From NCBI GenBank assembly GCA_003135555.1, contig PLCF01000009.1, positions 1 through 50,458 on the forward strand: a DNA stretch of 50,458 bases. Direction: 5' to 3'. Positions 31,619 through 46,104 of this stretch are shown here, in pieces. Under the pieces are notes generated by a model, which had not been told where the DNA came from, ran no database searches, and worked only from the letters and a program-made list of their open reading frames with translations. Position numbers and translations under genes: made by a program. The stretch comes from Vulcanimicrobiota bacterium (GTDB lineage: Bacteria; Vulcanimicrobiota; Vulcanimicrobiia; Vulcanimicrobiales; Vulcanimicrobiaceae). How positions within the stretch are numbered: position 1 is the stretch's first letter; every line of letters starts with the position of its first letter.

Positions 31619-31709
31619 GGAGCACTATCGTGATGCAGCCCGTAAGGCTCGGGCGGATCGGCCCGTCAGGGCCGAACGCGAGTGTTGGGGCCTTGGCCCC
31701 AACACACTA
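31619..31709 (+). repeat. Palindromic repeat family 2, copy B
   Basis: GGAGCACT..GCGGAT-[CGGCCC GTCA GGGCCG]-AACGCGAG-[GTGTTGGGGCC tt GGCCCCAACAC]-ACTA. Confidence 0.65.
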
Positions 31710-34391
31710 GAACCGGATCGAGAAGTTCAGGTCTTCGCGATTCTGGTTGAAGTTGTACGCCGGAATCACGTTGTCGCTATACTTCTGATTCCGGAAGAGC
31801 GCCGAGATCGAGCTCGTCGTCTTGGGGATGTTGTAGGTCAGCGTTCCCTGGTACTGATCCTTACGCTGGGCGATGTTCTGACCGGTCGTCGTCCCGTACG
31901 ATCCGTGGAACGCCTGACTGTTGTAGCCGGCACCCAAAACCAGGTCCTTCGTCAGCGGCAGCGTCGCGCCGATATCCAGCGTGGTGTGGTACTCGTCGAT
32001 GAAGTTCGGGAAGAACAGGATCGGCGTCGCACCACCGCCGAGGTATGCGTTGAGTGCCGCGCCCGAGGACGGGTCGGGACCGCCGGTGAGCGGGTTGAAC
32101 GGCACGTAGCTATACGCCGTCTGGTCGTTGCGGCTGAGGTGCTCGACCGCGCCGCTCAAGTTGAGCGCCAGGCTGTTGCCGAACACCGGCACGCCGAACT
32201 GCAGCCCGCCCTCGAGCTTGTCGAACTTGAGCAGTTGGTGTGAGGAGAAGCCCGGACCGTACGCCAGCTGCCCGAAACCGTTGGGCACCATCTCCGAGAG
32301 ATGCTGGCCCATGATGCGGCCCTGCAGCTTGATGTCGCCCAGGCGCAACGGTGTCGTAATGTTCGCGGTGACACCCCGTGAGTTCGGCGCGAACGCGCTG
32401 AAATACTGAGGGCCGCTGGCTACGAACGGGTTGAACACCGGGTAGATGTAGGTCAGGTTCGCGTTGTTGCGCGTGCAGGCCGTGCCGGCGCAACCCGGCG
32501 TGACGGCGCCGTCGAAGATCTGGTTGATCGCCAGATTGTTCGCGAAGCCGTAGAACTGCGGGAAGAAGTTTCCGCGCCAGAATTGGAACGTCGGCGGCGC
32601 CGGACCGAAGTAGCGCAGCGGGGCGCCGTCGAGGAAGTTCGCCCCGACCGCCTGGTACTGGACCGTCGCCGTCGCTTGGAAGATCTTCAGGCGCAGGCCG
32701 ATCACGGCGGCGCTGTCAGTAATCGCCGGCGTGTTGTAGAAGTCCGGCGTGTACTTGCTGAACGCCCCTTCGGCGAAGATCACCGGGTGTTGCGTTTTAT
32801 CGCTGCCGAGCGTGATGAACGCGAGCGGCAGCTGCGCGTCCAAACCGAAGACCGTGTCGCTGACCGCCCCGAATCCGTTCGCAGCCGGGTTGCCGTTGGG
32901 GGCCGACTGGTAGAAGTTGGTGCCCTGCGAGTTGGACAGGTCGACGAAGTCGAAGATGCGGCTCACCGAAACGCCGAGCTCGGCGCCGGGCAGGCCCTTG
33001 AACTTCTGATTGATCCGCGCGTTGAAATGATAGCGCTGGTATTGGTCGTTGTTGTTGTACGTCAGCCCGACGTAGGTGATCTGCACGGTCGAGCCGGCCG
33101 GCAGCGGCGAGGTGAACACGACCTGATTGGTCGCGTCGATGTAGTAGTAGCCGCCGCCCGGTGCCGCCGCGCTGATGCCCAGACAGTCGCCGCCGCCGGC
33201 GCGCTGACCGTTGATGGTGCACGGCGTGCCGTTGATCGACGACACGTACACGGTGCCGATCGTCGCCTTGCGGGAAAGGTAGACCGAGGTGATCGGGCCG
33301 GCGCTGGCGACGAACGTGTCGGTGCGCGACGCGCCGCCGCTCCCGTTGGGCGCGCCGGGCTGGAACAGGCTCGTCTGCGGGCGGGTCACGATGAAGAAGT
33401 AATTGTTGTTCGCGAACTCACCGTTGGGATCAGGCACGTTGGTGAGCGTGTTGATCATGGACTGGTCCATGCGCGTCCATGAGAACTGGAACTCGGTGAG
33501 CCCGCCCAGGATGCCGCCGATCTCGAAACCCTTCTCGTAGGGCTGCACCGGGTTCTCGTAACCGGGGCCCTGCTGGGTCGCGTCCGGGGCGCGGTACGTC
33601 AGGCCGACGCGCGACGACTTGAGGTTGTCGAGCTGACCGTCGCGGAAGTAGACGTTCGTCAGCGCGCCGACCTTCGCGATGTTCACCACGACGTCGGGCT
33701 GGATCGAATACTTCGCCTGCGGCGTGAACTCGCCGCCGTACTCGTAGTTGATGATGTGGACCGGGATCGAGACGGTGAGGTTCTCGTTGATCGTGTACGT
33801 GAAGTTCAACTTGTCGTCGAACCGGATCAGGTTGCCCGCGCCGGTTTGCTCGAGCGCGCTGTTGTTGGACGGCGACGTGAGGAAGACGTTGACGAACGGA
33901 TCGATGGCGCCGTGCGCGATCGTCTGCGGGACGCCGTAGCGCTGACGGAAGGAGTTGTTGTCGAGGATCGCGCCGTGCAGCTGGATCGACTGCGCAAACT
34001 TCGTGCGCTTGTCGAGCGCGTCGAGCGCGTCTTCGAGGTTCGTAACTCGAACGCCGAGCGAATCGAGCTCGTCCTTGAGCGCGTCGATGAGCTTCTGCAG
34101 CTTGTCGAGGTCCGCTTTGGAAGCGTAGCCCGCGCCGTTGGCCTGGAGCTTCGCGATGACGCGTGCGACGAGCACGGCCATTTCGTAGCGCGTCAACGGC
34201 CGATCACCCTTGAACTTACCGTCGGGATACCCCTCGACCAAGCCGTCGGCCGCGAGCGACTGGATCGCTTGATACGCCCAGTGGTTCGCAGGCACGTCCG
34301 AGAACGGCGTTGCGGAGGCGCCCTGACCCAACGCCAAGAGCGAGCCCAAACTGAAGCTCGCCGCCAGGACGAGGGTAGCGAGACGCTTCAT
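31707..34391 (-). CDS. SLH-domain + coiled-coil + beta-barrel outer-membrane protein (OmpM/SlpA-type tether)
   Basis: Start MKRLATLV after GGAGGA; SLH FSDVPANHWAYQAI..GYPDGKFKGDRPLTRYEMA; coiled coil; alternating beta strands; terminal NFSIRF. Confidence 0.88.
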   Translation of the reverse strand: MKRLATLVLAASFSLGSLLALGQGASATPFSDVPANHWAYQAIQSLAADGLVEGYPDGKFKGDRPLTRYEMAVLVARVIAKLQANGAGYASKADLDKLQKLIDALKDELDSLGVRVTNLEDALDALDKRTKFAQSIQLHGAILDNNSFRQRYGVPQTIAHGAIDPFVNVFLTSPSNNSALEQTGAGNLIRFDDKLNFTYTINENLTVSIPVHIINYEYGGEFTPQAKYSIQPDVVVNIAKVGALTNVYFRDGQLDNLKSSRVGLTYRAPDATQQGPGYENPVQPYEKGFEIGGILGGLTEFQFSWTRMDQSMINTLTNVPDPNGEFANNNYFFIVTRPQTSLFQPGAPNGSGGASRTDTFVASAGPITSVYLSRKATIGTVYVSSINGTPCTINGQRAGGGDCLGISAAAPGGGYYYIDATNQVVFTSPLPAGSTVQITYVGLTYNNNDQYQRYHFNARINQKFKGLPGAELGVSVSRIFDFVDLSNSQGTNFYQSAPNGNPAANGFGAVSDTVFGLDAQLPLAFITLGSDKTQHPVIFAEGAFSKYTPDFYNTPAITDSAAVIGLRLKIFQATATVQYQAVGANFLDGAPLRYFGPAPPTFQFWRGNFFPQFYGFANNLAINQIFDGAVTPGCAGTACTRNNANLTYIYPVFNPFVASGPQYFSAFAPNSRGVTANITTPLRLGDIKLQGRIMGQHLSEMVPNGFGQLAYGPGFSSHQLLKFDKLEGGLQFGVPVFGNSLALNLSGAVEHLSRNDQTAYSYVPFNPLTGGPDPSSGAALNAYLGGGATPILFFPNFIDEYHTTLDIGATLPLTKDLVLGAGYNSQAFHGSYGTTTGQNIAQRKDQYQGTLTYNIPKTTSSISALFRNQKYSDNVIPAYNFNQNREDLNFSIRF

Positions 34392-34431
34392 CGTGTCCTC
34401 CGAGATAGGTGGGACGTGCTGTCCGTGCTGG

Positions 34432-34539
34432 GCGCATCGCGCTCGCAGTCCGATTTCGGGTATCCCTGTTGCCCCGTGACCGGTTCGGCGAGAAGAACCC
34501 GTCTCGGACTTTACCGCGGCGGGCACAACGACGACGCGC
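34432..34539 (-). promoter_or_regulatory. Long hairpin in the 5' leader of the SLH-OMP gene
   Basis: Minus-strand nested pairings GCGCGTCG/CGATGCGC, AGTCCGA/TCGGACT, CGGGT/ACCCG, CCG-aac-CGG. Confidence 0.5.
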
Positions 34540-34600: not shown

Positions 34601-34993
34601 TTAAGAAGCCTTGAGGAAGCGCTCGGCTATCAGGAGCGCGGCATAGTCGTCGACGGGGCGGTCCGGGAGCAGCATCCCGAGGGGGATCAGCCGGCGCCAG
34701 CCCCGCGGGGGGTGGTCTCGGAAGAAGCGCGCCCGGGCCCGCAGCGTCGTCTCGCGCTCGTCGACCAGCTCGACCCGCAGCCCCAGGGCCGTGGCGACCG
34801 CCGCGACCGCGGCGGCGTTGGTCCCGCGCCCGATCGCGGCCACGCTGACCGGGTTCGCGGCCAGGATCTCGCGCAGCCGCTCCGCCAGCGATTCGAACGG
34901 GGCGATCCCCAGCGTCACCGGCGGCGCGCCGAGCCCGGTGACGATCGCGTAGCCGCACTTGCGCATCCCGGGGTCCAGGCCGAGCACCATCAT
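34601..34993 (-). CDS. YqgF/RuvX-like RNase H-fold nuclease
   Basis: VLGLDPGMRKCGYA, LVDERETT, PVDDYAALLIAERFL. Confidence 0.8.
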   Translation of the reverse strand: MMVLGLDPGMRKCGYAIVTGLGAPPVTLGIAPFESLAERLREILAANPVSVAAIGRGTNAAAVAAVATALGLRVELVDERETTLRARARFFRDHPPRGWRRLIPLGMLLPDRPVDDYAALLIAERFLKAS

Positions 34994-35934
34994 CGCGGCA
35001 CGAGCGAGTAGTTGAGCAAGATCCCGCCGGAGTGCGGGTACAGGTCCAGGCCGGCCTTGGCGACGAGGCGGTAGCGCCCGCGCAGCCGGCCGAGCTGGCT
35101 GAGCACCTCGAGCGCGTTGTTGCTGGGCTGGGGGTTGAGCGAAAACGCCGCCGGCATCCCGCGCTTGCGTATCTCGACGATCGCCGCCGCGGTCAGTTCC
35201 TGGAGCGGGATGAGGCTCGTCCCTTGCCCGCCCTGGACGTCGACCGATGCCAGCACGTCGCCGGCGGCCGCAACGCGGACGTCGAGATACGGTTGCAGCT
35301 GAAACGAGATGAGGTCTCCCTTGAAAAGATTCTGCGCCACCAGCGGCAGGAACAGCACCGGCGAGTCGCCCGGGAACCGGTCGCGAATCCGCCGCAGCTC
35401 CTCGCGCAGCTTGGCTTGGATCTCTGGTTCGGCCGCCTTGTGGTGATAGGCCTTGAGGTCGTAGGGCGGCCGGGCAAACTGGGCGTTGGCCTGCTGGACG
35501 GTACTGTCGAAAAACCCCGAGAGCTGCGCCATCACGACCGCGTCGGGCTGGGAAGGCCGGGTGGTGAGCGCGATGTTCGCGATGGGGTAACCGATCGGCA
35601 AGCTGATGTCGCCGATGCGCGTCGTCTCGAGCTCCTTCTGGGTCGCGATCGCTTGCGCTTGGAGGTCGTTGATGCGCGCGTTGATCTGCCCGAGGCGAAA
35701 GAAGGCCGTGCGCACCTGCTGCGAGCCGACCAGGGCGACGAGGGTCACCGAGAGCGCGATGAGCATCCCGGTCGCGACGGCGACGATGGTCGACGTGTAC
35801 TTGGGGCGCAGCCCGAACAGCGTGAGGCGCTTGCGGCCGACCTGGTGGCCGACGCGGTCGCCGATGTAGGCGATCCCGCCGGCGACGACGGTGATCGCCA
35901 GCACCAGCGCGATCCCCGACAGGTCGGCGATCAT
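34990..35934 (-). CDS. DUF3084 domain membrane protein
   Basis: GGIAYIGDRVGHQVGRKRLTLFGLRPKYTS signature; ATGA overlap with lptF/G. Confidence 0.85.
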   Translation of the reverse strand: MIADLSGIALVLAITVVAGGIAYIGDRVGHQVGRKRLTLFGLRPKYTSTIVAVATGMLIALSVTLVALVGSQQVRTAFFRLGQINARINDLQAQAIATQKELETTRIGDISLPIGYPIANIALTTRPSQPDAVVMAQLSGFFDSTVQQANAQFARPPYDLKAYHHKAAEPEIQAKLREELRRIRDRFPGDSPVLFLPLVAQNLFKGDLISFQLQPYLDVRVAAAGDVLASVDVQGGQGTSLIPLQELTAAAIVEIRKRGMPAAFSLNPQPSNNALEVLSQLGRLRGRYRLVAKAGLDLYPHSGGILLNYSLVPR

Positions 35935-37076
35935 ACGCGCGACGCCCGGCGCAGCAGCGACGCGCCGATCACGGTGAAGAGCAGATTCGACGCCCAGGCG
36001 GCCGGGCCGGCGAGCCACGTCGCGGCGCTGCCGACGCTCAGGAAGATCGTCGAGATCACGTAGTAGACGAACACGATCGCGACGGCCAGGCCAAACCCCA
36101 GGCCGGTGCCGCCGCCGCGCACCGGACGCAGCCCGAAGGGCACCGCGATGAGCGTGAAGACGAACGCGGCGAACGGCCGCGCCAGCTTCGACGCGTAGGT
36201 CGCGGTGAACGAGCGCTGCTGCTGCGGCGCCAGTTGACCCGAGTCCAGCCGCGACTTGATCTCGGCGCGCGAGAGCTGCTCGGGGTCGGTGATCTGCAAG
36301 GACTGCTTGGCGATCTGATTGGGGCGCTCGCCGATGTCGACGATCATCTGCGGAGCGGTCTGCGTCAGCACCGTGCCGTCGGCTTGAAAGTCGTACGTCT
36401 TCGAGTTCTCGAAGGTCCACGTCGGCGCGACGTAGCGCGCGCGGTCGGCGACGATGAGGTCGATCGGTTTTTGCTTGGCATCGTAGCGTATCACCGTCAC
36501 GTTGAGCAACGTCTGCGTCGCGAGGTCGAGCCCGGCCGCGATCGTGACCTGCTTCCCGCCGCCCGGGAGCGGCGTCACCGCCTGCAGGCTCGACGACGCC
36601 GGCGACCCGTGCTCAATCGCCTGTTGCTTCACGTACGCGGCCTTGTCGTTCGCGAACGGAACGAAAAGCTCTTGCACGGCCAGCGCCAACAGCGAGACGA
36701 CGAATCCGACGATGAGCAGCGGCGCGACGATGCGCGACAGCGAGATGCCGCCCGCCTTCATCGCGGTGATCTCGCTTTCGCTGGACAGCCGTTGCATCGC
36801 GAGCAAGGTGCCCAGCAGCATCGCCATCGGGATCACCAGCAACAGGTACGCCGGCATGTCCCACAGGAAATATTCGACCGCAGCCCACAGCGGCGCGTGT
36901 TCTTCGGAGACGAGCCGGCCGATCGCCAGGATCTGCGTCGCGACGAAGATCAGCGTGAAGGCCGACAGGCCGAAGAGCGACGGCCCGCCCAGCTCGGCGA
37001 TGAGATAGCGGTCCAGAATCGTCGGTCGCCACGGCGCGCGCGGTGCGGTGTGTCCGAGGCGCTCGGCGCGGGTCAC
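35931..37076 (-). CDS. LptF/LptG family LPS export permease
   Basis: ILDRYLIAEL, RLSSESEITAMKAGGISL, periplasmic beta-jellyroll, KLARPFA, AAWASNLLF. Confidence 0.92.
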   Translation of the reverse strand: MTRAERLGHTAPRAPWRPTILDRYLIAELGGPSLFGLSAFTLIFVATQILAIGRLVSEEHAPLWAAVEYFLWDMPAYLLLVIPMAMLLGTLLAMQRLSSESEITAMKAGGISLSRIVAPLLIVGFVVSLLALAVQELFVPFANDKAAYVKQQAIEHGSPASSSLQAVTPLPGGGKQVTIAAGLDLATQTLLNVTVIRYDAKQKPIDLIVADRARYVAPTWTFENSKTYDFQADGTVLTQTAPQMIVDIGERPNQIAKQSLQITDPEQLSRAEIKSRLDSGQLAPQQQRSFTATYASKLARPFAAFVFTLIAVPFGLRPVRGGGTGLGFGLAVAIVFVYYVISTIFLSVGSAATWLAGPAAWASNLLFTVIGASLLRRASRV

Positions 37077-37816
37077 AGGCGGAAGCTCTCCCCAAGGTAG
37101 AATTTGCGCGCCACCGGCGAGTCGAGCACGTCCTGGGCCGTACCGCTGACCTCGATCTTGCCGTCGTTGAGGATGTAGGCGCGGTCGACGATGGCCAGCG
37201 TCTCCCGCACTTGGTGATCGGTGATCAGGATACCGAGGCCGCGGTCGCGCAACTGCCGGATCATCGCCTGGATGTCGGCAACGGCGATCGGGTCGATCCC
37301 GGTGAAGGGCTCGTCGAGCAGCAGGAACGCCGGTTCGGTCGCGATCGCGCGCGCGATCTCGACGCGCCGCCGCTCACCGCCGGAGAGTGAGTCGCCGCGC
37401 TGGTCGACGAACTGCGACAGCCCGAACTCCGCGAGCAGCTCGGGGAGGCGGCGCTCGCGCTCGGCGTTGGGGATCCCGTTCATCTCCCAGATCAAACGCA
37501 GGTTGTCGCCGACAGAGAGTTTGCGGAAGATCGAGTTCTCCTGCGCCAGATACCCGATCCCGGCCCGGGCCCGTTCGTGCATCGGCGCGCCGGTGATCTC
37601 GCGCACGGCGCCGTCACGTTCGAGGACGACCGTTCCGCCGTCGGGCCGGATCAACCCAACCACCATGTAAAACGTCGTGGTCTTGCCGGCGCCGTTGGGT
37701 CCGAGCAGACCCACCACCTCACCGCGCCGAACCTCCGCGGTGACGCCCTTGACGACGGTGCGCGGGCCGTACGTTTTGACGAGGTCGCGCAGAACGATGC
37801 GGTCGCCGCCGGTCAC
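37073..37816 (-). CDS. lptB: LPS export ABC ATPase LptB
   Basis: GLLGPNGAGKTTTFYM, GIGYLAQENSIFRKL, LSGGERRRVEIARA, LLDEPFTGIDP, LITDH, YLGESFRL. Confidence 0.96.
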   Translation of the reverse strand: MTGGDRIVLRDLVKTYGPRTVVKGVTAEVRRGEVVGLLGPNGAGKTTTFYMVVGLIRPDGGTVVLERDGAVREITGAPMHERARAGIGYLAQENSIFRKLSVGDNLRLIWEMNGIPNAERERRLPELLAEFGLSQFVDQRGDSLSGGERRRVEIARAIATEPAFLLLDEPFTGIDPIAVADIQAMIRQLRDRGLGILITDHQVRETLAIVDRAYILNDGKIEVSGTAQDVLDSPVARKFYLGESFRL

Positions 37817-38394
37817 TTGCGGCCCCGCGTGATCTTCACGTCCTGCAGCTTGACGTCACCGTCGATGTCGTCGCCGGCCATGTCGACGCCGTTGGGCGCG
37901 TGCAGCTGAACGTTGCCCGCGCCGTGCAGCCGCTCGGTGTTCGCGTCGTAGCGCAGCGTGTCGCACGTCAGCAGGATCCCCGCGCTGGTTCGCGCGTGCA
38001 CTCCACCGGTCATCACCACGCTCTTGTCCCGTTCGCTGCTGTGCGCCTTCGGGGCGTCGGCGATGGTCTTGGCGCCGGTCTTGTCGATGAAGGTGACGTG
38101 GGGCTGCTCGAGGTCGCCGGTCGCTTCGCTCGTGCCGCTGCGCTGCATCTCGCCGGAGAGCGCTCGGATCGTGTACACCTTGCGGCGATGGCTCGTCTCC
38201 ACGATGGTGACGTACTCGCCGTTGCGACTGTGCGTTTCGACGTGGATCGGGATCGGGGAGGCGCTCGGTGATGCGGCGCTCGACGCAGCCGGCGCAGCGG
38301 GTGCCGGGCTCGAAGCCGGGCCGGCCGCCGGTTGCCGCCCGCAGGCGGTCGCGCACACCAGTGCCAGGCCGAGCGCGGCCCTAACGAAGCGCAT
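37813..38394 (-). CDS. lptC: LptC-like beta-jellyroll protein with lipoprotein-type signal
   Basis: LALVCATAC signal; VVMTGGVHA..LTCDTLRYDANTERL jellyroll pattern; directly upstream of lptB. Confidence 0.7.
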   Translation of the reverse strand: MRFVRAALGLALVCATACGRQPAAGPASSPAPAAPAASSAASPSASPIPIHVETHSRNGEYVTIVETSHRRKVYTIRALSGEMQRSGTSEATGDLEQPHVTFIDKTGAKTIADAPKAHSSERDKSVVMTGGVHARTSAGILLTCDTLRYDANTERLHGAGNVQLHAPNGVDMAGDDIDGDVKLQDVKITRGRK

Positions 38395-39571
38395 TGGTTC
38401 GTATTACGGCGAGCGCAAGTGGAACGACCTGGAGGCCCAGCGGGAAGAACAGGTTGAGCGTGTTGATCCCGACGTCGATGAACAACGCGAGCAGCGCCGC
38501 CGCCAGCCCGAAGCCCAGTGTACGCGCGGTGCCCGCGGCGCCGCGAGCGCTGCGCAGCACCGTGACCACGACGATCGTGAACGAGGCGAACAGGGTCACG
38601 AGCGCTACGCTACCGCCTTCGGCTGCGAAGGCTATCGGAAGCGAGTGCGGATCGAAGGCGACCGCCGTGCGCGTGCCGGGTGCGTCCGGCGGCCGCAGCG
38701 CGTCGTAGGTGTGGGGGAAGGCGAACGGGCCCACGCCCAGCAGCGGGAAACGCTCGAAGGTCGACAGTCCGGTCTGCCAGGCCACGGCGCGGGCACGGGC
38801 GTCGCGCGGGTTGTGATGCGCCGCGCCGGCAGCCGCGTCGAGGGCGATTCCGGCCACGGCCGCCACCACGGCCGCCACCAGGAGGGCCCGTGCCCGGGCG
38901 GCCAGCCCGTAGGCCGCTACCCCGCAGACCGCCGAGAACGCGCCCCAGCGCGAGAAGGTCGCCGCCAGCGTGACCACCAGGATCGCTGCGCTGACCGTCG
39001 CCAGCCGGTCGCGGCCGCGCGAGACGAGCGCGAGCGGGACGGCGACGCCCAGCGCGACGATGGCGTAGGCGGCCAACTCGTTGGGGTTGAGGAACGTCCC
39101 GATCGCCCGACCCGCATTGAATGCGTACAACGCGACCGGGCGCTGCGAAACGACCATCGCCAGTGCCAGCACCGACGCGCCCAACGCCGACCACAAGAAG
39201 CTGCGGATGCACAGGCGGGTGGTGGCGGCGTCGGCGACGCGCGCCAGCGTCAGTCCGGCCGCGCCGAGCCCGGTCACCATGACGCCGAGCCCGATGCCCA
39301 GCAGCGGATCGAACCCGGGGATGGCGGCCAGGATCGTCGCCGCCCCGGGTGCCAGGAACGCAACGGTCAGCCAGTCCCGCCGGAGCGCTCCGCGCGCCGC
39401 CGGCACGACCGCGAGCACGGCTGCGAGCCCGACCAGGCCGATCGCAGCCGCCACGGAGCGCGGGACCAGCGGCGGGATCCCGGGGCTCGCCGGCGCGAAC
39501 CCGCCGAACGTGCCGTAGAGCGGGATGATCGCGAACAAGACCACCAGCCCGGACGCCGAGATCCGGTTCAT
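38381..39571 (-). CDS. O-antigen ligase (WaaL/Wzy_C) family membrane protein
   Basis: RAIGTFLNPNELA, TFSRWG, R..AWQTG..FPLLGVG, PHS..AEGG. Confidence 0.85.
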   Translation of the reverse strand: MNRISASGLVVLFAIIPLYGTFGGFAPASPGIPPLVPRSVAAAIGLVGLAAVLAVVPAARGALRRDWLTVAFLAPGAATILAAIPGFDPLLGIGLGVMVTGLGAAGLTLARVADAATTRLCIRSFLWSALGASVLALAMVVSQRPVALYAFNAGRAIGTFLNPNELAAYAIVALGVAVPLALVSRGRDRLATVSAAILVVTLAATFSRWGAFSAVCGVAAYGLAARARALLVAAVVAAVAGIALDAAAGAAHHNPRDARARAVAWQTGLSTFERFPLLGVGPFAFPHTYDALRPPDAPGTRTAVAFDPHSLPIAFAAEGGSVALVTLFASFTIVVVTVLRSARGAAGTARTLGFGLAAALLALFIDVGINTLNLFFPLGLQVVPLALAVIRTNALR

Positions 39572-40656
39572 GCGGCGCCCGCCAAGTCGACGACGGCCTG
39601 GGCGATCGCGCGGGCTCCGCCCGGGCCGCCCATGCGCTCGCGTCCGACGGCGCTCATCAGCTCGCGCCGCGCGGCGTCGCGCAGCAGCGCGGCGACGGCG
39701 TCGGCCGCGGGTTCCGGGTCACCCGGAACGAGCGTGAGCGCTTCGCCCAACAACCCCATCTGCCGCTTGCGGTACCAGGCGTCGCGCGGGGCGTCCTCGA
39801 GCTCGAGCGCCACCACCGGGATCCCTTGTGCCGCGGCGGCCTCGTTCGCGGTGCCGCTTTGGCCCAGCGCCAGCGTCGCCCCATGCAGCACGCCGCCGAG
39901 CGGGCCGTGCCACGCGCGCAGGTCGCCCAGCTCGAGCGCCGGCGCAAAGCGCCGCTCGTCGAGATTCGGCGCGACCGAGAGCACCGCGTCGAGCGCACCG
40001 GCGCGTTCTCGCAGCGCGACGACGACCGCGGCGATGCGCAGCGCGTCGGCGTAGGCCCGTTCGCGCGAGCCCGGCAGGATCGCGAGCCGCAGCGGCGTTT
40101 GCCACTCGACGCGCGTCTGGGTCGCCAGCAGATCCACGATGACGTTGCCGGGAGCCTCCGCCGCGAGACCGTGCGCGCGCAGCTCGCTTGCCGTCGCGGC
40201 GTCGCGCACGAAGATGCGCGCGGCGCCGCGCAGGATGCGCCGTTCGCCCGCGCCGTACGGCGCGACGTACACGCTCTTCGCGGTTCCGACGTACGCCAGC
40301 GGGGCGCGCGCCAAGCGCGCGAGCGCGCACGCGTAGGCGTCGCCGACCGCGATCACCGCCGCGTAGCGTCCGCGCGCAGCGCGCAGAAACGCGATTTGGC
40401 GCGCGAACAAGCCGGCCAACCCGGCGCCGAGATCGCGCGCCAGGGCGCGCACGTTGCCCATCGCGACCAAGCCGCCCGACGGCATCGCCTGTTGCGGGCC
40501 GACATCGACGAACTCACCGCCGCCGAGCCGCTCGCCGACGAGCGCCAGGTGTTCGGTGCGCAGCGGCGCGAGCGCTCGCGCTTCCACGGCGATCCGGGCG
40601 GCGATCGCGGCTTCACCGTGACCGTTGGAGACGAAGAGGATCGCGGCGTGCGTCAC
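39568..40656 (-). CDS. Lipid-A-disaccharide-synthase-related GT-B glycosyltransferase (TIGR03492-like)
   Basis: LFVSNGHGE, MPSGG, AVGD, GTAKS, FVRD, GN, ILPGSR, SGTANE, RMGGPGGARAIA; GTGA overlap. Confidence 0.8.
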   Translation of the reverse strand: MTHAAILFVSNGHGEAAIAARIAVEARALAPLRTEHLALVGERLGGGEFVDVGPQQAMPSGGLVAMGNVRALARDLGAGLAGLFARQIAFLRAARGRYAAVIAVGDAYACALARLARAPLAYVGTAKSVYVAPYGAGERRILRGAARIFVRDAATASELRAHGLAAEAPGNVIVDLLATQTRVEWQTPLRLAILPGSRERAYADALRIAAVVVALRERAGALDAVLSVAPNLDERRFAPALELGDLRAWHGPLGGVLHGATLALGQSGTANEAAAAQGIPVVALELEDAPRDAWYRKRQMGLLGEALTLVPGDPEPAADAVAALLRDAARRELMSAVGRERMGGPGGARAIAQAVVDLAGAA

Positions 40657-41378
40657 CGCAGCGGTTCCAACGCAAAATCGGTGATCCGCGCACGGCCGGT
40701 CGCGTCGCGGACGAGCTCCGAGCGCGAGGCGAAGGCGCCGTACGGACCGGCGTGCACGATCGGCACCTCGCCGACGTACTGGGGCTCGGGCAACGTGTCG
40801 TGGCTGTGGCCGCCCAGGATGAGGTCGAGCCGCGGCACCCGCGCGGCCAGCAACCGATCGTGGCGCAGACCGAGGTGTGACAGCGCGATCAGCGTCGTAT
40901 CCGCGGGCGTCGTCGCAGCGATGCGCTCGGCGACGCCGATCGGGTCGAGGAAGCGCCATCCGAAGAGCTTCTCCCAGGGCGAACCGGTCGGATATTGCAC
41001 CACGAGCAAGCCGAAGAAGCGCACCGCCGCGCCGCCGTCACCGCAACCCCGCACCAGGTCGGGTTCGAACGGCAGCTTGCGACCGCGCGTGTCGACCAGG
41101 TTCGCGCACAGCAGCGGGTGGTTCATCTGCGCCGCCCGCGCGCGAACCGCGCCGAACACGTAGTGGAACTCGCGATTTCCCATCGCTTGCACGTCGACGC
41201 CGGCTGCGTCGAGCTCGGCGATGATCGGTTCGCGGCGGTGATAGATGGTCTGCGAGCCGCGCAAGCTGTCGCCGCAATCGACGTACAGCCCGGGCTTGGC
41301 GGCGCGCAAGGCGGCGATCGGCGCGGCGATGTGCCGCCGATCGTGCACGTCGCTCGTATGATAGATGCGCAGCTTCAA
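40653..41378 (-). CDS. Cytoplasmic calcineurin-like metallophosphoesterase (5'-nucleotidase N-terminal domain only); candidate UDP-2,3-diacylglucosamine hydrolase
   Basis: HTSDVH, DCGD, GNREFH, LLCANL, LSHLG, ILGGHSH; no signal peptide and no C-terminal nucleotidase domain. Confidence 0.85.
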   Translation of the reverse strand: MKLRIYHTSDVHDRRHIAAPIAALRAAKPGLYVDCGDSLRGSQTIYHRREPIIAELDAAGVDVQAMGNREFHYVFGAVRARAAQMNHPLLCANLVDTRGRKLPFEPDLVRGCGDGGAAVRFFGLLVVQYPTGSPWEKLFGWRFLDPIGVAERIAATTPADTTLIALSHLGLRHDRLLAARVPRLDLILGGHSHDTLPEPQYVGEVPIVHAGPYGAFASRSELVRDATGRARITDFALEPLR

Positions 41379-41382
41379 GTTG

Positions 41383-41508
41383 AAAGGCGCTTGTTCAACG
41401 GCGCTCCGCCCCGGGCTGCGCGCCCCCCACGCCTGCGGCGCGGGGCCCCCCGGTCGAGCGCGCGCTCATGATTTCGGCCGCGCGAGATTCCCCGAGGGCG
41501 CGCGCAAC
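41383..41508 (-). repeat. Structured repeat family 1, copy 2 (overlaps the lpxB 3' end)
   Basis: Aligned by eye with copies at 15060 and 42626. Confidence 0.85.
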
Positions 41509-42621
41509 AGCCGGGTTGCTTTCGGCGACCGTTTTGAGAACCCAGTCGGCGTTGCGCTGGAGTGCGTCGGGCGGGCCCAGCGCTTCGCGGACGCGCGCGT
41601 ACCCGGCGCTCTGCCGCAGCGGGTCGTCCAACAGCGTCAGCATCGCATCGGCCAGCGCCGCGGGCGTCGCGGCCTCCTGCAGCAGCTCCGGCACGACGGG
41701 TTCGCCGACGACGAGATTGGGCAGCGTGATGTACTGGCCGCGATAGATGCGGCGCGCGATCTTCGCCTGCGCCGGAGCCATCACGTAGAGCGCGACCGCC
41801 GGCGTCCCGATCAGCGCCGCCTCCAGCACCGCCGTGCCCGACGCGACCGCGGCGACGTCGGCCGCGCGCAGCGCGGCGCGTGCATCGCGCACAACCTCGA
41901 GCGGCAGCGGCGAACGGAACGAGAGGAGGTGCGCGACGTGCGCGTGCGCGTCGTCGTCGGCCGCAACGAGCACCGCGCGCACGTTGGGCCGCGCTTCGCG
42001 CACGCGCGCGATCGCGTCGAGGAGCCGCGGCGTATGACGCTCGATCTCGCCGGCCCGGCTGCCCGGCAGCAGCGCGACCAGGCCGCCGTCCGCGGGCGCG
42101 GCAGGGCGCGGCTCGCGCCGCGCGATCGTCGTCACCAAGGGGTGCCCGACGTAGCCGATCGGCAGGCCTAGCGTGCGATAGAACTCCGCTTGATGCCGGA
42201 AGATCGTCAGCGCGTCGCACAGCGACGCAACGGCGCGCGCACGTTTGGGATTGTCGAGCCAGGCCGCGGGCGGCGCGTAGTAGACGACGGGCTTCGCAAA
42301 GCCCAGCAGGCGCAACGTGCGGGCGAGCCGGACGTTGAAGGCGCCGAAGTCGACCAGCACGACACAGTCCGGCGCCGTGCGCCGCAGCCGCAGCGCGGTG
42401 CGCGCCATGATCGTCCACAGCTTGGGGATCTTGCCGATCGCGTCGAGCGGACCCAAGGATGCCCAGCCGCGGTTGCGCCGCACGATCTGCACGCCGGCGT
42501 CGGCCAAACGTGCGTCGCCGATCCCTTCGGCCTCGACCGCAACGCGCTCGCGCAGCGCACCCAACAAGTCGGAAGCCAACAACTCGCCCGATGCCTCGCC
42601 AGTGCTAAAGAAGATTCTCAT
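41395..42621 (-). CDS. lpxB: Lipid-A-disaccharide synthase LpxB
   Basis: IFFSTGEASGE, LVDFGAFN, YVGHPL, ALLPGSRAGE, ASGTAVLE, LPNL..VPELLQ. Confidence 0.93.
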   Translation of the reverse strand: MRIFFSTGEASGELLASDLLGALRERVAVEAEGIGDARLADAGVQIVRRNRGWASLGPLDAIGKIPKLWTIMARTALRLRRTAPDCVVLVDFGAFNVRLARTLRLLGFAKPVVYYAPPAAWLDNPKRARAVASLCDALTIFRHQAEFYRTLGLPIGYVGHPLVTTIARREPRPAAPADGGLVALLPGSRAGEIERHTPRLLDAIARVREARPNVRAVLVAADDDAHAHVAHLLSFRSPLPLEVVRDARAALRAADVAAVASGTAVLEAALIGTPAVALYVMAPAQAKIARRIYRGQYITLPNLVVGEPVVPELLQEAATPAALADAMLTLLDDPLRQSAGYARVREALGPPDALQRNADWVLKTVAESNPAVARALGESRAAEIMSARSTGGPRAAGVGGAQPGAERR

Positions 42622-42748: not shown

Positions 42749-43522
42749 CTACTTGAGTATTCCGCGTTCGGAATCGGCTTCGAGAAAGGCGAGCAGCGTG
42801 CGGCCTTCGTTGGTGTTGACTGAGTCACGTAGTGCGGCGATCGCTTGCGACACGTTCTTGTCGGATTGATAGATCGTCTTGTACGCCTCCTTGAGCTCGA
42901 TGAGCGCTTCGCGCGAGAACCCGGCGCGGCGCAAGCCGACCGCGTTGAGCCCGTAGACCTCGGGCGGATTGCCGTCGCACAGAAAGTAAGGCGGGAGATC
43001 CCGCCCCAGTTTGCTATAGCCGCCGACGAACGAGTAGCGGCCGATGCGCACGAACTGATGGATCCCCGCCATCGCTCCGATCAAGGCATGGTCTTCGACC
43101 ACGACGTGCCCCGCCAATTGCGCGAGGTTCGACATGGTCACGTTGTTGCCGACGCGGCAGTTGTGCGCGACGTGGCCGTACGCCAGGATGAGGCAATCGT
43201 CACCGACCGACGTCTCGGCGCCGGCCTCAGCGGTGCCGCGATGAATCGACACGTACTCGCGGATCACCGTGCGCGCGCCGATTTTCGTGTATGCCACCTC
43301 GCCGAGCTCGGCTTTGCGGTCTTGCGACGGCGCGCCGATCGAGGCGAACGGATGGATGACGGTCTCGTCGCCGATCGTGGTGCGGCCGGTCACCACAACG
43401 TGCGCGAGCAGCTTTGCGCGGGCGCCGATCGTGACGTGCTCGCCCACGACGCAGTACGGGCCGATGTCGACGCTCTTGGCGATCTTGGCGTTGGGGTGCA
43501 CGACCGCGCTGGGATGGATCAC
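42749..43522 (-). CDS. lpxA: UDP-N-acetylglucosamine acyltransferase LpxA
   Basis: Hexapeptide repeats, QDRK, IREYVSIHRGT, HVAHNC, LAGHV, HQFVRIG, GLNAVGLRRAGF. Confidence 0.96.
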   Translation of the reverse strand: MIHPSAVVHPNAKIAKSVDIGPYCVVGEHVTIGARAKLLAHVVVTGRTTIGDETVIHPFASIGAPSQDRKAELGEVAYTKIGARTVIREYVSIHRGTAEAGAETSVGDDCLILAYGHVAHNCRVGNNVTMSNLAQLAGHVVVEDHALIGAMAGIHQFVRIGRYSFVGGYSKLGRDLPPYFLCDGNPPEVYGLNAVGLRRAGFSREALIELKEAYKTIYQSDKNVSQAIAALRDSVNTNEGRTLLAFLEADSERGILK

Positions 43523-43992
43523 GTGTGCAGCACCGTCGCGTCGTCAGCGAACGCCGAGGGATCGGTGGTGACCGAGAAGGTCAGCTCCGCGCTGACGACC
43601 GGCTTGCCGTCGACGCTGGCCTCGACCGCGACCCAGCCGATGTTGAGCTTGTGGCGCAGCACGCGCGCCTCCATGTCGAGCCGGTCGCCGGGGACGACCG
43701 GGCGGCGGAACTTCGCCTTGTCGATACCGGCCAGATACGGGACCTTGCGCGCCATCTCGCCGGCTTCGATGATCGCCGTGCCGCCCAGCTGCGCGAGCGC
43801 CTCGATCATGTACACTCCGGGCAGCAACGGGTTCCCGGGAAAATGGCCCATCAGCATCGGCTCGTTGGCGGAGACGTTCTTGTAGCCGCGCGCGAGCACC
43901 ATCGGCTCGAGCTCGGTGATACGGTCGATCAGCAGCATCGGGTAGCGGTGCGGCAAGATCTTCATGATCTCGCGCACGTCGAGAATCGGCAC
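43519..43992 (-). CDS. fabZ: 3-hydroxyacyl-ACP dehydratase FabZ
   Basis: LPHRYPMLLIDR, GHFPGNPLLPGVYMIEALAQ, KFRRPVVPGD. Confidence 0.97.
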   Translation of the reverse strand: MPILDVREIMKILPHRYPMLLIDRITELEPMVLARGYKNVSANEPMLMGHFPGNPLLPGVYMIEALAQLGGTAIIEAGEMARKVPYLAGIDKAKFRRPVVPGDRLDMEARVLRHKLNIGWVAVEASVDGKPVVSAELTFSVTTDPSAFADDATVLHT

Positions 43993-44007: not shown

Positions 44008-44172
44008 TAGTGTGCTGAACCAGCGGTTCCGTGCAATAGATCGCGAAGGATTTTTTCTCGGATCGAGGAGTGATGAGGGAGCAACGCCGTAGCGTTGTGA
44101 CCGAAGAACGACGAAGAGCCGGGCAAAAAGCCGAGTGAGATTTTGTGCGCGAACTGCTGGTTCAGCACACTA
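44008..44172. mobile_element. MITE-like element (165 bp including flanking TA) with terminal inverted repeats
   Basis: TAGTGTGCTGAACCAGCGGTTC ... GAACTGCTGGTTCAGCACACTA (21/22 match), TA at both ends, lower GC than flanks, no ORF. Confidence 0.85.
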
Positions 44173-45015
44173 GGAGGTGGCGGAAACTGCGGTCGACTCC
44201 CCGCCGCCGTGCGGAAGGAGCTCGCGCACCGCGGTGCAGTGCAGCTTGTGACCGCTCTTGACCGCGATGACCTCGCACTGCGGGTACGCGCCGAGCAGCG
44301 CGAAGTCGCCGACGAGGTCGAGGATCTTGTGGCGCGCCGGTTCGGTCGGCGAGCGCAGCGGCGTCAGCGGTCCGTCGGGACCGAACACGGCGGCGTTCTC
44401 GAGGGTCCCGCCCCGCGCGAGCCCGCGCTTGCGCAGCCCTTCGACTTCGTGCAGGAACCCGATCGTCCGGTTCGGGGCGATCTCTTGGCGATACGTCTCC
44501 GGCGTGATCTCCGCCTCGACGTACTGCGCGCCGATCGGGGCCGGATAGTCGACGGTCATCCGCACCCGGAACGACGACGCCGGCGCGACGACGAGCAGCT
44601 TCTCGCCGTCGCGAAACACGCGCGGCTCCGTCGGGATCCAGCGGACGCGGGTTTCGTGCAGCGTCACGAGCCCCACGGCCTCGAACGCGTCGGCGAACAC
44701 CTTGGCGCTGCCGTCGGCGACCGGGATCTCCGGACCGTCGACCGCGATGAGCGCGTTGTCCACACCGCAGCCGAGCAGCGCGGAGAGCAGATGCTCGACG
44801 GTGGAGACGCGATGCTCGCCCACGCCCAGGACGGTCGCGCGCAGCGTCTCGACGACGTAGTCGGCGCGCGCCGGAAACTCCACCGCGTCGTTGAGGCGGA
44901 AGCGCAGGCCGTGGCCTGCAGGAGCGGGGAGGAGGCGGACCCGGGCGGGGACGCCGGTGTGGAGGCCGGCGCCTTCGAATGCCACCGCGTCGCGCAACGT
45001 CGTCTGGTACTGCAC
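44170..45015 (-). CDS. lpxC: UDP-3-O-acyl-GlcNAc deacetylase LpxC
   Basis: QTTL..GAGLHTG, STVEHLLSAL, EIPVADGSA, IAPNRT, RHKILDLVGD, SGHKLH; GTG start inferred. Confidence 0.96.
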   Translation of the reverse strand: MQYQTTLRDAVAFEGAGLHTGVPARVRLLPAPAGHGLRFRLNDAVEFPARADYVVETLRATVLGVGEHRVSTVEHLLSALLGCGVDNALIAVDGPEIPVADGSAKVFADAFEAVGLVTLHETRVRWIPTEPRVFRDGEKLLVVAPASSFRVRMTVDYPAPIGAQYVEAEITPETYRQEIAPNRTIGFLHEVEGLRKRGLARGGTLENAAVFGPDGPLTPLRSPTEPARHKILDLVGDFALLGAYPQCEVIAVKSGHKLHCTAVRELLPHGGGESTAVSATS

Positions 45016-45021
45016 TTGGAG

Positions 45022-45081
45022 GAGTCGCCTTCGGCGAACCCGTCGCATTCGGCCTTCGCCCGCGCGCCGGAGCCGCCCGAA
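45022..45081 (-). repeat. Degenerate palindromic repeat family 2, copy C
   Basis: Minus strand TCGGGCGGCTCCGGC..GGCCGAATGCGAC..TCGCC GAA GGCGA resembles TCGGGCGGATCGGC..GGCCGAACGCGAG of copy B. Confidence 0.45.
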
Positions 45082-46104
45082 TCACCGCTTTTCTAGGGCA
45101 TCTACCCGAGCGTTGAGTTTCGGCAGGCGGCGGATGTACGCCTGGAGGCGCACGTGGTCGCGATGATTGTGGGCCGGCTGCCCGCTCACGAACGCGTCGT
45201 CGGGGACGTCGCCCCAAACGTGCGAGGCGCCACCGATGGTGACCCGGTTGCCGATGGTGGTGTGACCGGGGAACAGCGCCTGCCCGCCGATCCGGCAGTA
45301 GTCGCCGATCGTCGTCGTCCCGGCCAGCCCGGCGAAGGCCGCGATCGCCGTGTGCGCCCCGATCCGGCAGTTGTGGCCGATCTGGCACAGGTTGTCGATC
45401 TTGGTCCCCGTGCCGATCGAGGTCACGCCGGTTTGCGCGCGGTCGACGCACGTGTTCGCCCCGATCTCGACGTCATCGGCCAGCGTGACGATGCCGATCT
45501 GCGGGATCTTCACCAGCCGGCCGTCCAGCGTCGCCCAACCGAACCCGTCGCTGCCGATCACCGCGCCGGCCTGCAGCACCACGCGGTCGCCCGCGACGCA
45601 GCGGTCGGCCAGGCAGGCGCGAGGGTGGAACAAACACGCTTCGCCGACGACCGCGTCGGCGCCGACGACCACCCCGGCTTGGAGCACGGTCCGGTCGCCG
45701 ATCCGCGCGCGAGCCCCGACCGCGGCGTGCGCGCCGATCCAGACCTGGGCACCCAGCACCGCGCTGGGGTCGACCGCGGCCGTCGGGTGCACGAAGGGGC
45801 CCTGCGGACGCGCCGGCTCGAGCCCTTCGAGCAGCGCGGCGAGAGCGACCCGCGCCGAAACGACCGCCAGGATCGGCTTGGCGTACATCTCGCCCGCCGC
45901 CACCAAGGTCTCGTCGGTGAGCACGGCCGCGGCGCGGGATTCGAGCGCGCTGCGCAGATAGCGCGCGTCGACCGCGAAGGTCAGCGTTCCGGCGCCCGCG
46001 TCGTCGACCGCCGCGATGCGCTCGATCGGCGTGGCCGGGTCGCCGATGACGCGACCGCCGGTCCGCCCGGCGAGCTCTCCGAGCGTCCCCAGCGCCGGGT
46101 TCAC
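45082..46104 (-). CDS. lpxD: UDP-3-O-(3-hydroxyacyl)glucosamine N-acyltransferase LpxD
   Basis: IGSDGFG, KIPQIG, VEIGANTCVDR, TKIDNLCQIGHN; hexapeptide repeats. Confidence 0.96.
   Translation of the reverse strand: MNPALGTLGELAGRTGGRVIGDPATPIERIAAVDDAGAGTLTFAVDARYLRSALESRAAAVLTDETLVAAGEMYAKPILAVVSARVALAALLEGLEPARPQGPFVHPTAAVDPSAVLGAQVWIGAHAAVGARARIGDRTVLQAGVVVGADAVVGEACLFHPRACLADRCVAGDRVVLQAGAVIGSDGFGWATLDGRLVKIPQIGIVTLADDVEIGANTCVDRAQTGVTSIGTGTKIDNLCQIGHNCRIGAHTAIAAFAGLAGTTTIGDYCRIGGQALFPGHTTIGNRVTIGGASHVWGDVPDDAFVSGQPAHNHRDHVRLQAYIRRLPKLNARVDALEKR

Follow-up and report, generated by a model that had tools for sequence, protein, structure and literature searches.

We examined a stretch of 50,458 nucleotides (nt) from a Vulcanimicrobiota bacterium (NCBI GenBank assembly GCA_003135555.1, contig PLCF01000009.1; the whole stretch is referred to here as the window) and identified, directly after the lipid A disaccharide synthase gene lpxB, an open reading frame (ORF; 40653..41378, minus strand) encoding a stand-alone metallophosphoesterase of 241 amino acids (aa) with a GNRE motif. 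On balance, although far from certainly, we take this phosphoesterase to be a candidate fourth, independently recruited family of UDP-2,3-diacylglucosamine (hereafter UDP-DAGn) pyrophosphatase, the enzyme that yields lipid X. To our knowledge, lipid X formation is the one lipid A step that has been solved several times by evolution (LpxH, LpxI and LpxG). We favour this assignment because two of the three known UDP-DAGn hydrolases are metallophosphoesterases, and because the arginine that marks LpxH is invariant in the family described here.

Sequence, motifs and fold of the phosphoesterase

A 241-aa calcineurin-like protein directly after lpxB had been described in the initial annotation, and the ORF, its PF00149 match and the 16-nt gap between the lpxB stop and the phosphoesterase start all bear this out. 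The start codon is TTG, and the open frame upstream of it holds no earlier start. Pfam detected the Metallophos domain alone (PF00149, residues 3–193, E 5.2e-5); the 5_nucleotid_C domain (PF02872) was not found by Pfam, and the chain stops at residue 241. NCBIfam gave partial matches, all far below the whole-protein cut-offs, in which the metallophosphoesterase portion of SoxB (E 1.7e-19), of UshA-like proteins, of CpdB and of UshA was covered, the NCBIfam name of UshA indicating UDP-sugar hydrolysis, and no LpxH model was among the 11 NCBIfam matches at E ≤ 0.01. Strand 1, on which the DxH motif sits, begins at residue 2 according to both the model and the sequence, so that there is no space for a signal peptide (no dedicated signal-peptide predictor was run), and the phosphoesterase is predicted to be cytoplasmic. 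The JGI labels of its relatives are generic, being either 2',3'-cyclic-nucleotide phosphodiesterase or 5'-nucleotidase.

Metal ligands were read in an alignment of 72 rows (A1). They are found in motif I, D10-V11-H12 (41343..41351; D in 71 and H in 72 of the 72 rows), in motif II, G36-D37, with the bridging ligand (41268..41273, invariant), at H168 (40875..40877, invariant) and in the GHxH motif G190-H191-S192-H193 (40800..40811; both histidines invariant), all on the minus strand, and the seven residues D10, H12, D37, N68, H168, H191 and H193 are retained in 71–72 of the rows. Motif III reads G67-N68-R69-E70 (41169..41180, minus strand), with an arginine at the position of the catalytic histidine of 5'-nucleotidases; GNRE is invariant in A1 by selection.

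The AlphaFold2 model, built from 72 sequences, has a mean predicted local distance difference test score (pLDDT) of 97.1 and a predicted template modelling score (pTM) of 0.93. Structural comparison gave Z 28.3 for NadN, 27.9 for a Thermus 5'-nucleotidase, 26.6 for E. coli UshA and 25.6 for SoxB, with the UshA-type N-terminal domains matching at Z 26.6–28.3 over 230–233 residues. When the family profile was compared with the PDB, 5'-nucleotidases came out on top (E 1.2e-36 to 5e-35) and no LpxH chain was matched at E ≤ 10; the Pseudomonas aeruginosa LpxH chain 5b49_A stood at rank 43 in the structural comparison (Z 10.4, root-mean-square deviation 3.4 over 159 residues), against Z 26–28 for the 5'-nucleotidases. 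Given a Z score of 10.4 to LpxH, E values of about 1e-36 to 5'-nucleotidases and no matched LpxH chain, the phosphoesterase is a lone 5'-nucleotidase-type catalytic domain outside the LpxH family. In its modelled fold and predicted ligands it corresponds to a binuclear hydrolase in working order. Pfam, profile and fold thus agree with the earlier description of an N-terminal domain of the UshA type without signal peptide or C-terminal domain, and the GNREFH sequence that had been pointed out (GNRE at 41169–41180), with the other metal motifs kept, was read from the sequence itself.

Conservation and origin of the GNR motif

Since GNRE was a selection criterion in A1, its conservation was counted in unselected sets. 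A locus scan of genome contigs retained the best 80 of 116 relatives, all of the Vulcanimicrobiota type and 59–80% identical to the phosphoesterase, and GNREFH was present in all 80 of these orthologues, so that the arginine was conserved throughout and is no chance feature. Close homologues carry the names Candidatus Elarobacter, Vulcanimicrobiota and Eremiobacteraeota. Searched with phmmer, a set of 1.84 billion protein representatives yielded 5014 matches at E ≤ 1e-3, and motifs were counted among the best 150. Here the 76 relatives of 225–290 aa had GNRE in 73 cases, GNH in 2 and neither in 1, while the 42 relatives of at least 390 aa had GNH[DE] in 35, neither in 4 and GNRE in 3.

The three long proteins with GNRE were P0153, P0157 and P0126. 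P0153 (650 aa), from a low-GC contig of 17.6 kb, joins a GNRE phosphoesterase (residues 4–250) to a full TIGR03492 domain (residues 263–644; 305 bits, over the cut-off) and is the sole fusion of these two domains among the best 150 representatives. P0157 has an LpxB match with the phosphoesterase domain further along the chain, and P0176, one of the four long proteins with neither motif, likewise joins an LpxB match to a phosphoesterase domain; P0126 has neither an LpxB nor a TIGR03492 match. P0157, P0176 and P0126 were set aside as evidence because all three come from contigs of high GC content and may owe their length to read-through in gene calling.

A maximum-likelihood tree was built from 94 rows: every second GNRE representative (37 out of 73), 20 loci labelled by their context, the window protein, 34 N-terminal domains cut from long proteins and the 2 short GNH proteins. 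A branch with SH-aLRT support of 100 separated 58 GNR rows and one short GNH row (P0187) from the 35 other GNH rows, and the GNR/GNH label costs two changes on this tree. It places a single GNR clade as an offshoot of the 5'-nucleotidase-type enzymes, set apart from the long, secreted nucleotidases with GNH and separate from LpxH. The change from histidine to arginine thus arose essentially once, and with it the signal peptide and the C-terminal domain were lost.

P0187, a stand-alone protein of 243 aa inside the second of the two GNR subclades described below, reads GNHEF and appears to be an arginine-to-histidine reversion.

The lipid X step in Vulcanimicrobiota genomes

The assembly that contains the window has 3.57 Mb in 98 contigs and is 84.44% complete. 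Neither LpxH (TIGR01854) nor LpxI_C (PF06230) was found in it at E ≤ 10; LpxG was not searched for. In control genomes the LpxH model finds the LpxH of E. coli and Bacteroides, and the LpxI model that of Caulobacter. LpxK and WaaA were not found in the window's genome either, and KdsB was not above the cut-off. Because an incomplete genome proves little, we repeated the searches in 121 genomes sampled from the whole GTDB phylum (18 families, 61 genera). LpxB was found in 119 of these and the profile of the phosphoesterase family matched 120 (both counts take in one unpublished genome, G110, on which alone no statement rests). None of the 121 had LpxH or LpxI_C over the cut-off, the nearest being a single match of 17.9 bits for LpxH and a single one of 16.9 bits for LpxI_C. 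Since LpxB is present and no known hydrolase was found by the LpxH and LpxI searches, these organisms need a source of lipid X or of an equivalent acceptor.

LpxK had a marginal match in just 1 of the 121 genomes, and WaaA was found in just 1, which has 9% contamination. Since both are confined to single genomes, the phylum has a cyanobacteria-like four-enzyme lipid A pathway (lpxD-lpxC-fabZ-lpxA-lpxB), and both Kdo and the 4'-phosphate are probably missing from its lipid A. We know of no enzyme for lipid X formation in bacteria that have just lpxA, lpxC, lpxD and lpxB. According to the accessible part of PMC3087551, such a four-enzyme pathway was reported in 2010 for cyanobacteria and Dictyoglomi, with a lipopolysaccharide (LPS) that lacks Kdo and phosphate.

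The six other metallophosphoesterase genes of the window's genome, namely two YfcE-like genes, two uncharacterised paralogues of about 390 aa on contig C82, SbcD and one TIGR00282 gene, were considered for the hydrolase and rejected, as they have no LpxH-like match and no LPS neighbour.

Linkage of the phosphoesterase to lpxB and to a TIGR03492-like gene

The phosphoesterase lies between lpxB (41395..42621, minus strand) and a gene with GTG start for a 362-aa TIGR03492-like glycosyltransferase homologous to LpxB (39568..40656, minus strand; 183 bits, below the TIGR03492 cut-off of 219.2). The TGA stop of the phosphoesterase shares the four letters GTGA (40653–40656) with the GTG start of this downstream gene. 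Judged by the spacing of the genes, the phosphoesterase is probably co-transcribed with both LpxB and the LpxB homologue.

This arrangement is kept across the 80 Vulcanimicrobiota loci. lpxB stands directly upstream of the phosphoesterase in 79 of them, the contig of the remaining one (L061) beginning inside the gene, and the TIGR03492-like gene directly downstream in 79, the contig of L041 ending inside it. The genes lpxD, lpxC, fabZ and lpxA on one side and those for Wzy, lptC and lptB on the other are kept wherever the contig extends. Across the same loci the phosphoesterase is 59–80% identical and LpxB 46–80%, so the phosphoesterase is at least as constrained as LpxB. In 14 further genomes from other families of the phylum, lpx genes were found in the phosphoesterase locus in 11, and the TIGR03492-like gene followed the phosphoesterase in 13, the exception being G001. 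The most constant partner of the phosphoesterase is therefore the TIGR03492-like gene, within lipid A clusters.

Clusters of the sister families also hold GnnA/GnnB-like genes along with another, weak LpxB-like transferase and a membrane methyltransferase of the PEMT/ICMT type, none of which is a phosphoesterase. As these remaining conserved genes have other assignable roles, we count this in favour of the phosphoesterase as the enzyme for lipid X formation.

A second subclade of GNR proteins

The GNR clade is split in the tree into two subclades. Subclade I contains the window protein, all sampled genomes of the phylum and the loci L108 and L116, in which lpx genes and a TIGR03492-like gene are again present. 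Named members of subclade II (SH-aLRT 99) carry the NCBI label Armatimonadota, and a subclade II profile found no true member in the 121 genomes (best score 241 bits, versus 340–363 for real members). L108, L116 and the subclade II loci came from a metagenome scan with a 13-row alignment (A3), of which 80 loci were kept; 21 of them had a stand-alone GNR gene from outside the Vulcanimicrobiota, 14 being annotated by Pfam and the other 7 lying on short contigs.

In subclade II, of which the members have no TIGR03492-like neighbour, LPS genes adjoin the phosphoesterase in 5 of the 12 annotated loci. The order is KdsD-KdsC-phosphoesterase-ArnT-like-GT2 in L098 and L100, KdsB-KdsA-KdsD-phosphoesterase in L150, KdsD-phosphoesterase in L097, and phosphoesterase-ArnT-like followed by LptC and LptB in L104. 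The link to LPS thus recurs with different partners in a different phylum and does not depend on one gene order.

Perhaps the family consists of general cytosolic UDP-sugar or dinucleotide pyrophosphatases, whose position in a lipid A cluster would have no functional meaning; the generic JGI annotation, and the remaining 7 of the 12 loci in subclade II, would fit such an enzyme. We consider this highly improbable, since on either side all 79 loci in which DNA is present keep the gene order, as do 18 families of the phylum, with translational coupling and a natural fusion to a lipid A-type transferase, and a chance linkage would not survive divergence that takes LpxB down to 46% identity.

The TIGR03492-like partner

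NCBIfam names TIGR03492 a "lipid-A-disaccharide synthase-related protein". With hhalign, the TIGR03492-like protein was aligned to LpxB over 270 columns (probability 98.6%, E 8.2e-16), and its LLPGSR and GT..E motifs fall on the pyrophosphate and ribose contacts of LpxB, the contact residues being those of Table 3 in the available portion of PMC5785501. As the donor motifs are aligned with those of LpxB, the protein looks like an active transferase that uses a UDP-sugar. In the PDB, the TIGR03492 profile gave weak matches to UDP-GlcNAc 2-epimerases alone (E 2e-4) and matched no LpxB chain; TIGR03492 also has matches in the Synechococcus elongatus and Deinococcus radiodurans controls. Complex prediction of the TIGR03492-like protein with the phosphoesterase gave 0.00 in both runs, which had no controls and are evidence neither way. 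Sequence words of the locus were next to absent from three peat metatranscriptome runs, which we do not count as evidence.

The position of the gene between two transferases that release UDP, together with its place in the 5'-nucleotidase clade, would suit a product-clearing nucleotidase, which would draw the reactions of LpxB and the LpxB-like transferases forward by hydrolysing the UDP or UMP that they set free. It is, however, very unlikely that this is the role, as the nucleoside-binding C-terminal domain and the catalytic histidine are both lost, cytoplasmic UDP is normally recycled, and the lipid X step would be left without any enzyme.

It is also conceivable, although we find it unlikely, that the phosphoesterase assists the TIGR03492-like transferase at another point of this truncated lipid A/LPS pathway. 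It might split UMP off a disaccharide that was formed ahead of hydrolysis and is still joined to UDP, or it might take the 1-phosphate away from lipid X or from the disaccharide, which would yield a lipid A free of phosphate like that reported for cyanobacteria. The two genes adjoin each other in 79 of 80 loci and in 13 of the 14 from other families, with overlapping stop and start, occur as a natural fusion, and in L184–L186 stand without lpx genes, and UshA-type enzymes are also monoesterases. Because LpxK and WaaA are each limited to 1 of 121 genomes, the final lipid would differ from Kdo2-lipid A, and a cyanobacterial LPS without phosphate is described in what is accessible of PMC3087551. 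On the other hand, subclade II lacks the TIGR03492-like neighbour and yet lies by Kdo and Lpt genes, and LpxB still needs an acceptor, for which there is no other candidate gene. The PEMT/ICMT methyltransferase of other classes, if it is like LmtA of Leptospira, would moreover imply a retained 1-phosphate. Finally, as far as can be drawn from the accessible text of PMC5016852, a histidine-to-arginine change should suit a phosphate leaving group, and hence a pyrophosphate substrate, better than a monoester.

Both proteins might act together, the GNR domain and the TIGR03492 protein forming a two-protein metabolon for lipid X synthesis and condensation that completes the four-enzyme pathway of Terrabacteria-type diderms. 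Here a protein with glycosyltransferase fold that binds UDP-diacylglucosamine would do the work of the lost C-terminal domain, bring the lipid-linked nucleotide sugar up to the metal site and perhaps condense at once the lipid X made there. We regard this more elaborate arrangement as rather unlikely.

Proposed role of the phosphoesterase

With the phosphoesterase taken as a UDP-DAGn pyrophosphatase, we infer its substrate, its products and the role of its partner as follows. A cytoplasmic enzyme with a binuclear metal site would split UDP-2,3-diacylglucosamine into UMP and lipid X, the acceptor of LpxB. Its ancestor would be the catalytic N-terminal domain of enzymes of the UshA/5'-nucleotidase type, for which cleavage of UDP-sugars at the pyrophosphate is nothing new. 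D10, H12, D37, N68, H168, H191 and H193 would bind a pair of metal ions, which would activate water for attack on the alpha-phosphate, and R69 would take the place of the general-acid histidine of motif III and, like Arg80 of LpxH, neutralise the departing sugar-1-phosphate. The loss of the nucleoside-binding C-terminal domain would probably be made good by the coupled TIGR03492-like protein or by LpxB.

Several observations weigh against this assignment. The tightest association of the phosphoesterase is with the TIGR03492-like gene and not with lpxB, as the fusion P0153 and the loci L184, L185 and L186, in which the pair lies away from lpx genes, illustrate, so the phosphoesterase may serve the reaction of that transferase. 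No cyanobacterial member of the GNR family was among the named matches, though TIGR03492 is present in Synechococcus; other four-enzyme organisms must therefore solve the step differently, a GNR enzyme cannot be what all of them use, and the same different solution could exist here. In subclade II, 7 of the 12 annotated loci have no LPS neighbour: an M28 peptidase adjoins the phosphoesterase in L105 and L107, and other neighbours are found in L106, L110, L096 and L112. In the seventh, L111, a 225-aa ORF consisting of 5_nucleotid_C alone (L111:7217-7891) lies just upstream of the phosphoesterase, which reads GNRES, and slightly overlaps it; this may be an ordinary nucleotidase that was split and swapped in order. 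As LpxG, itself a metallophosphoesterase, was not searched for, the negative results for LpxH and LpxI do not extend to it. Finally, the window's genome is only 84.44% complete, yet in the sample of 121 genomes, 108 reach a completeness of at least 90% with no more than 5% contamination.

The candidate pyrophosphatase put forward in the initial annotation is thus strengthened by the negative searches for LpxH and LpxI, first in its own genome and then in the 121, by the linkage to lpxB in relatives (79 of 80 loci, with lpx genes in 11 of 14 loci of other families), by the arginine in all 80 orthologues and by the tree, and is weakened in so far as the closest partner is the TIGR03492-like gene. 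Its setting in a full Raetz pathway could not be upheld: LpxK and WaaA were not found in the window's genome, what the organism has is a truncated form with four enzymes, and a phosphate-removing role is also conceivable.

If the assignment is true, this gap would be closed throughout a soil phylum that is abundant worldwide (Vulcanimicrobiota/Eremiobacterota) and probably in the Armatimonadota as well, and the histidine-to-arginine change of LpxH would have occurred once more, in another branch of the metallophosphoesterase superfamily. It would also draw attention to a family of LpxB paralogues to which no function is assigned. The candidate is concrete and clonable, one cultured species exists, and complementation of E. 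coli lpxH is an established assay.

The lipid A cluster and its neighbouring genes

Upstream of lpxB, all on the minus strand as is the whole cluster, we identified lpxD (45082..46104; Hexapep and PF04613 LpxD), lpxC (44170..45048; PF03331, E 9.7e-84), fabZ (43519..43992; PF07977, FabA-like) and lpxA (42749..43522; Hexapep and Acetyltransf_11). lpxB itself matches PF02684 (E 1e-68) and TIGR00215 (195.2 bits, cut-off 190.25) and starts at the methionine of MRIFFSTGE. Pfam and NCBIfam accordingly agree with the cluster of lpxD, lpxC, lpxA and lpxB that had been annotated at the outset. Downstream of the TIGR03492-like gene come a Wzy_C membrane protein resembling O-antigen ligases or polymerases (38381..39571; PF04932, E 1.4e-12), lptC (37813..38394; PF06835, TIGR04409), lptB (37073..37816; ABC_tran, 75–95% identical across the loci of the phylum) and an lptF/lptG-type permease (35931..37076; PF03739, E 7.3e-73).

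Following lptF/G on the same strand are a DUF3084 protein (34990–36420), for which the long ORF call probably begins too far upstream, and a weak RuvX-like gene (34601–34993). A 939-aa protein (31707–34526, minus strand) has one N-terminal SLH domain (residues 74–117) and a long C-terminal part with no Pfam match; it looks similar to the OmpM-type outer-membrane tethers or porins of Terrabacteria-type diderms.

Other lineages of the phylum differ around the same genes. In genus g37 (L177:3904-6345 and L178:3309-5834), LpxB forms the first 350–400 residues of a protein of 814–842 aa, the C-terminal 450 or so residues of which have no Pfam match. In other classes (L179:5630-7364, L182:5383-5967, L183:5330-7089, L189:5403-7319 and L180:5360-7327), the weak LpxB-like transferase and a PEMT/ICMT methyltransferase of about 190 aa lie between lpxB and the phosphoesterase, and in G001 the two are fused in a protein of 656 aa. 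This methyltransferase may be a lipid A phosphate methyltransferase like LmtA of Leptospira. Genes for a GFO/IDH/MocA oxidoreductase and a DegT aminotransferase stand between fabZ and lpxA in L177:2089-3057, L179:2575-3546, L181:8020-10178 and L116:3214-4314. These GnnA/GnnB-like genes, which are absent from the cluster of the window, suggest a lipid A backbone of 2,3-diamino-glucose in those sister lineages.

Comparison with known enzymes

As of 2026, three classes of UDP-DAGn hydrolase, LpxH, LpxI and LpxG, are named in the accessible part of PMC13018214. In the literature up to 2026, with subscription journals outside its coverage, no fourth class, no mention of the phosphoesterase family and no role for TIGR03492 was found. 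With LpxI (PF06230/PF17930), the phosphoesterase would have the proposed reaction alone in common, the fold being unrelated and the attack directed at the other phosphate according to the same portion of PMC13018214.

LpxG of Chlamydia, as described in the available text of PMC4807358, is calcineurin-like too, depends on Mn2+ and came to catalyse this step by a recruitment separate from that of LpxH, with a mass of 37 kDa, an N-terminal transmembrane helix and the motifs DXH, GDXXDR, GNHD and GHXH. The phosphoesterase is set apart from this description by having no N-terminal helix or extension and by reading GDSLRG and GNRE, while GHSH is present.

With LpxH, the phosphoesterase shares the metallophosphoesterase fold, a binuclear metal site, the arginine of motif III (GNR), a length of about 240 aa, the predicted cytoplasmic location and the encoding together with lipid A genes. 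LpxH has an inserted helical cap that holds the acyl chains, and in the corresponding region the model of the phosphoesterase shows two short helices alone (residues 134–139 and 146–156). In line with the arginine that had been mentioned for LpxH in the initial annotation, the accessible part of PMC5016852 reports that the histidine of motif III is an arginine in all known LpxH sequences, and in LpxH alone among metallophosphoesterases, and that Arg80 contacts the lipid X phosphate through a bidentate salt bridge. As no sequence relationship to LpxH was found and the structures are distant, the GNR arginine is convergent, and the phosphoesterase family, as read from its sequences, is a second and independent case of the histidine-to-arginine change in motif III.

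The N-terminal domain of UshA and the 5'-nucleotidases (also NadN, CD73, SoxB and CpdB) remains the closest relative, with the same metal-ligand motifs, Foldseek TMq values of 0.75–0.82 and Z scores of 23–28. UshA cleaves UDP-sugars at the pyrophosphate, and its C-terminal domain supplies the binding of nucleotide and substrate. The phosphoesterase differs in having neither a signal peptide nor 5_nucleotid_C, in reading GNREFH instead of GNHEFD, in forming a separate clade with support of 100 and in being encoded in a lipid A operon. Thus the reaction and the superfamily are known ones, and what would be new is an independent family, with a convergent change in the active site and a new partner.

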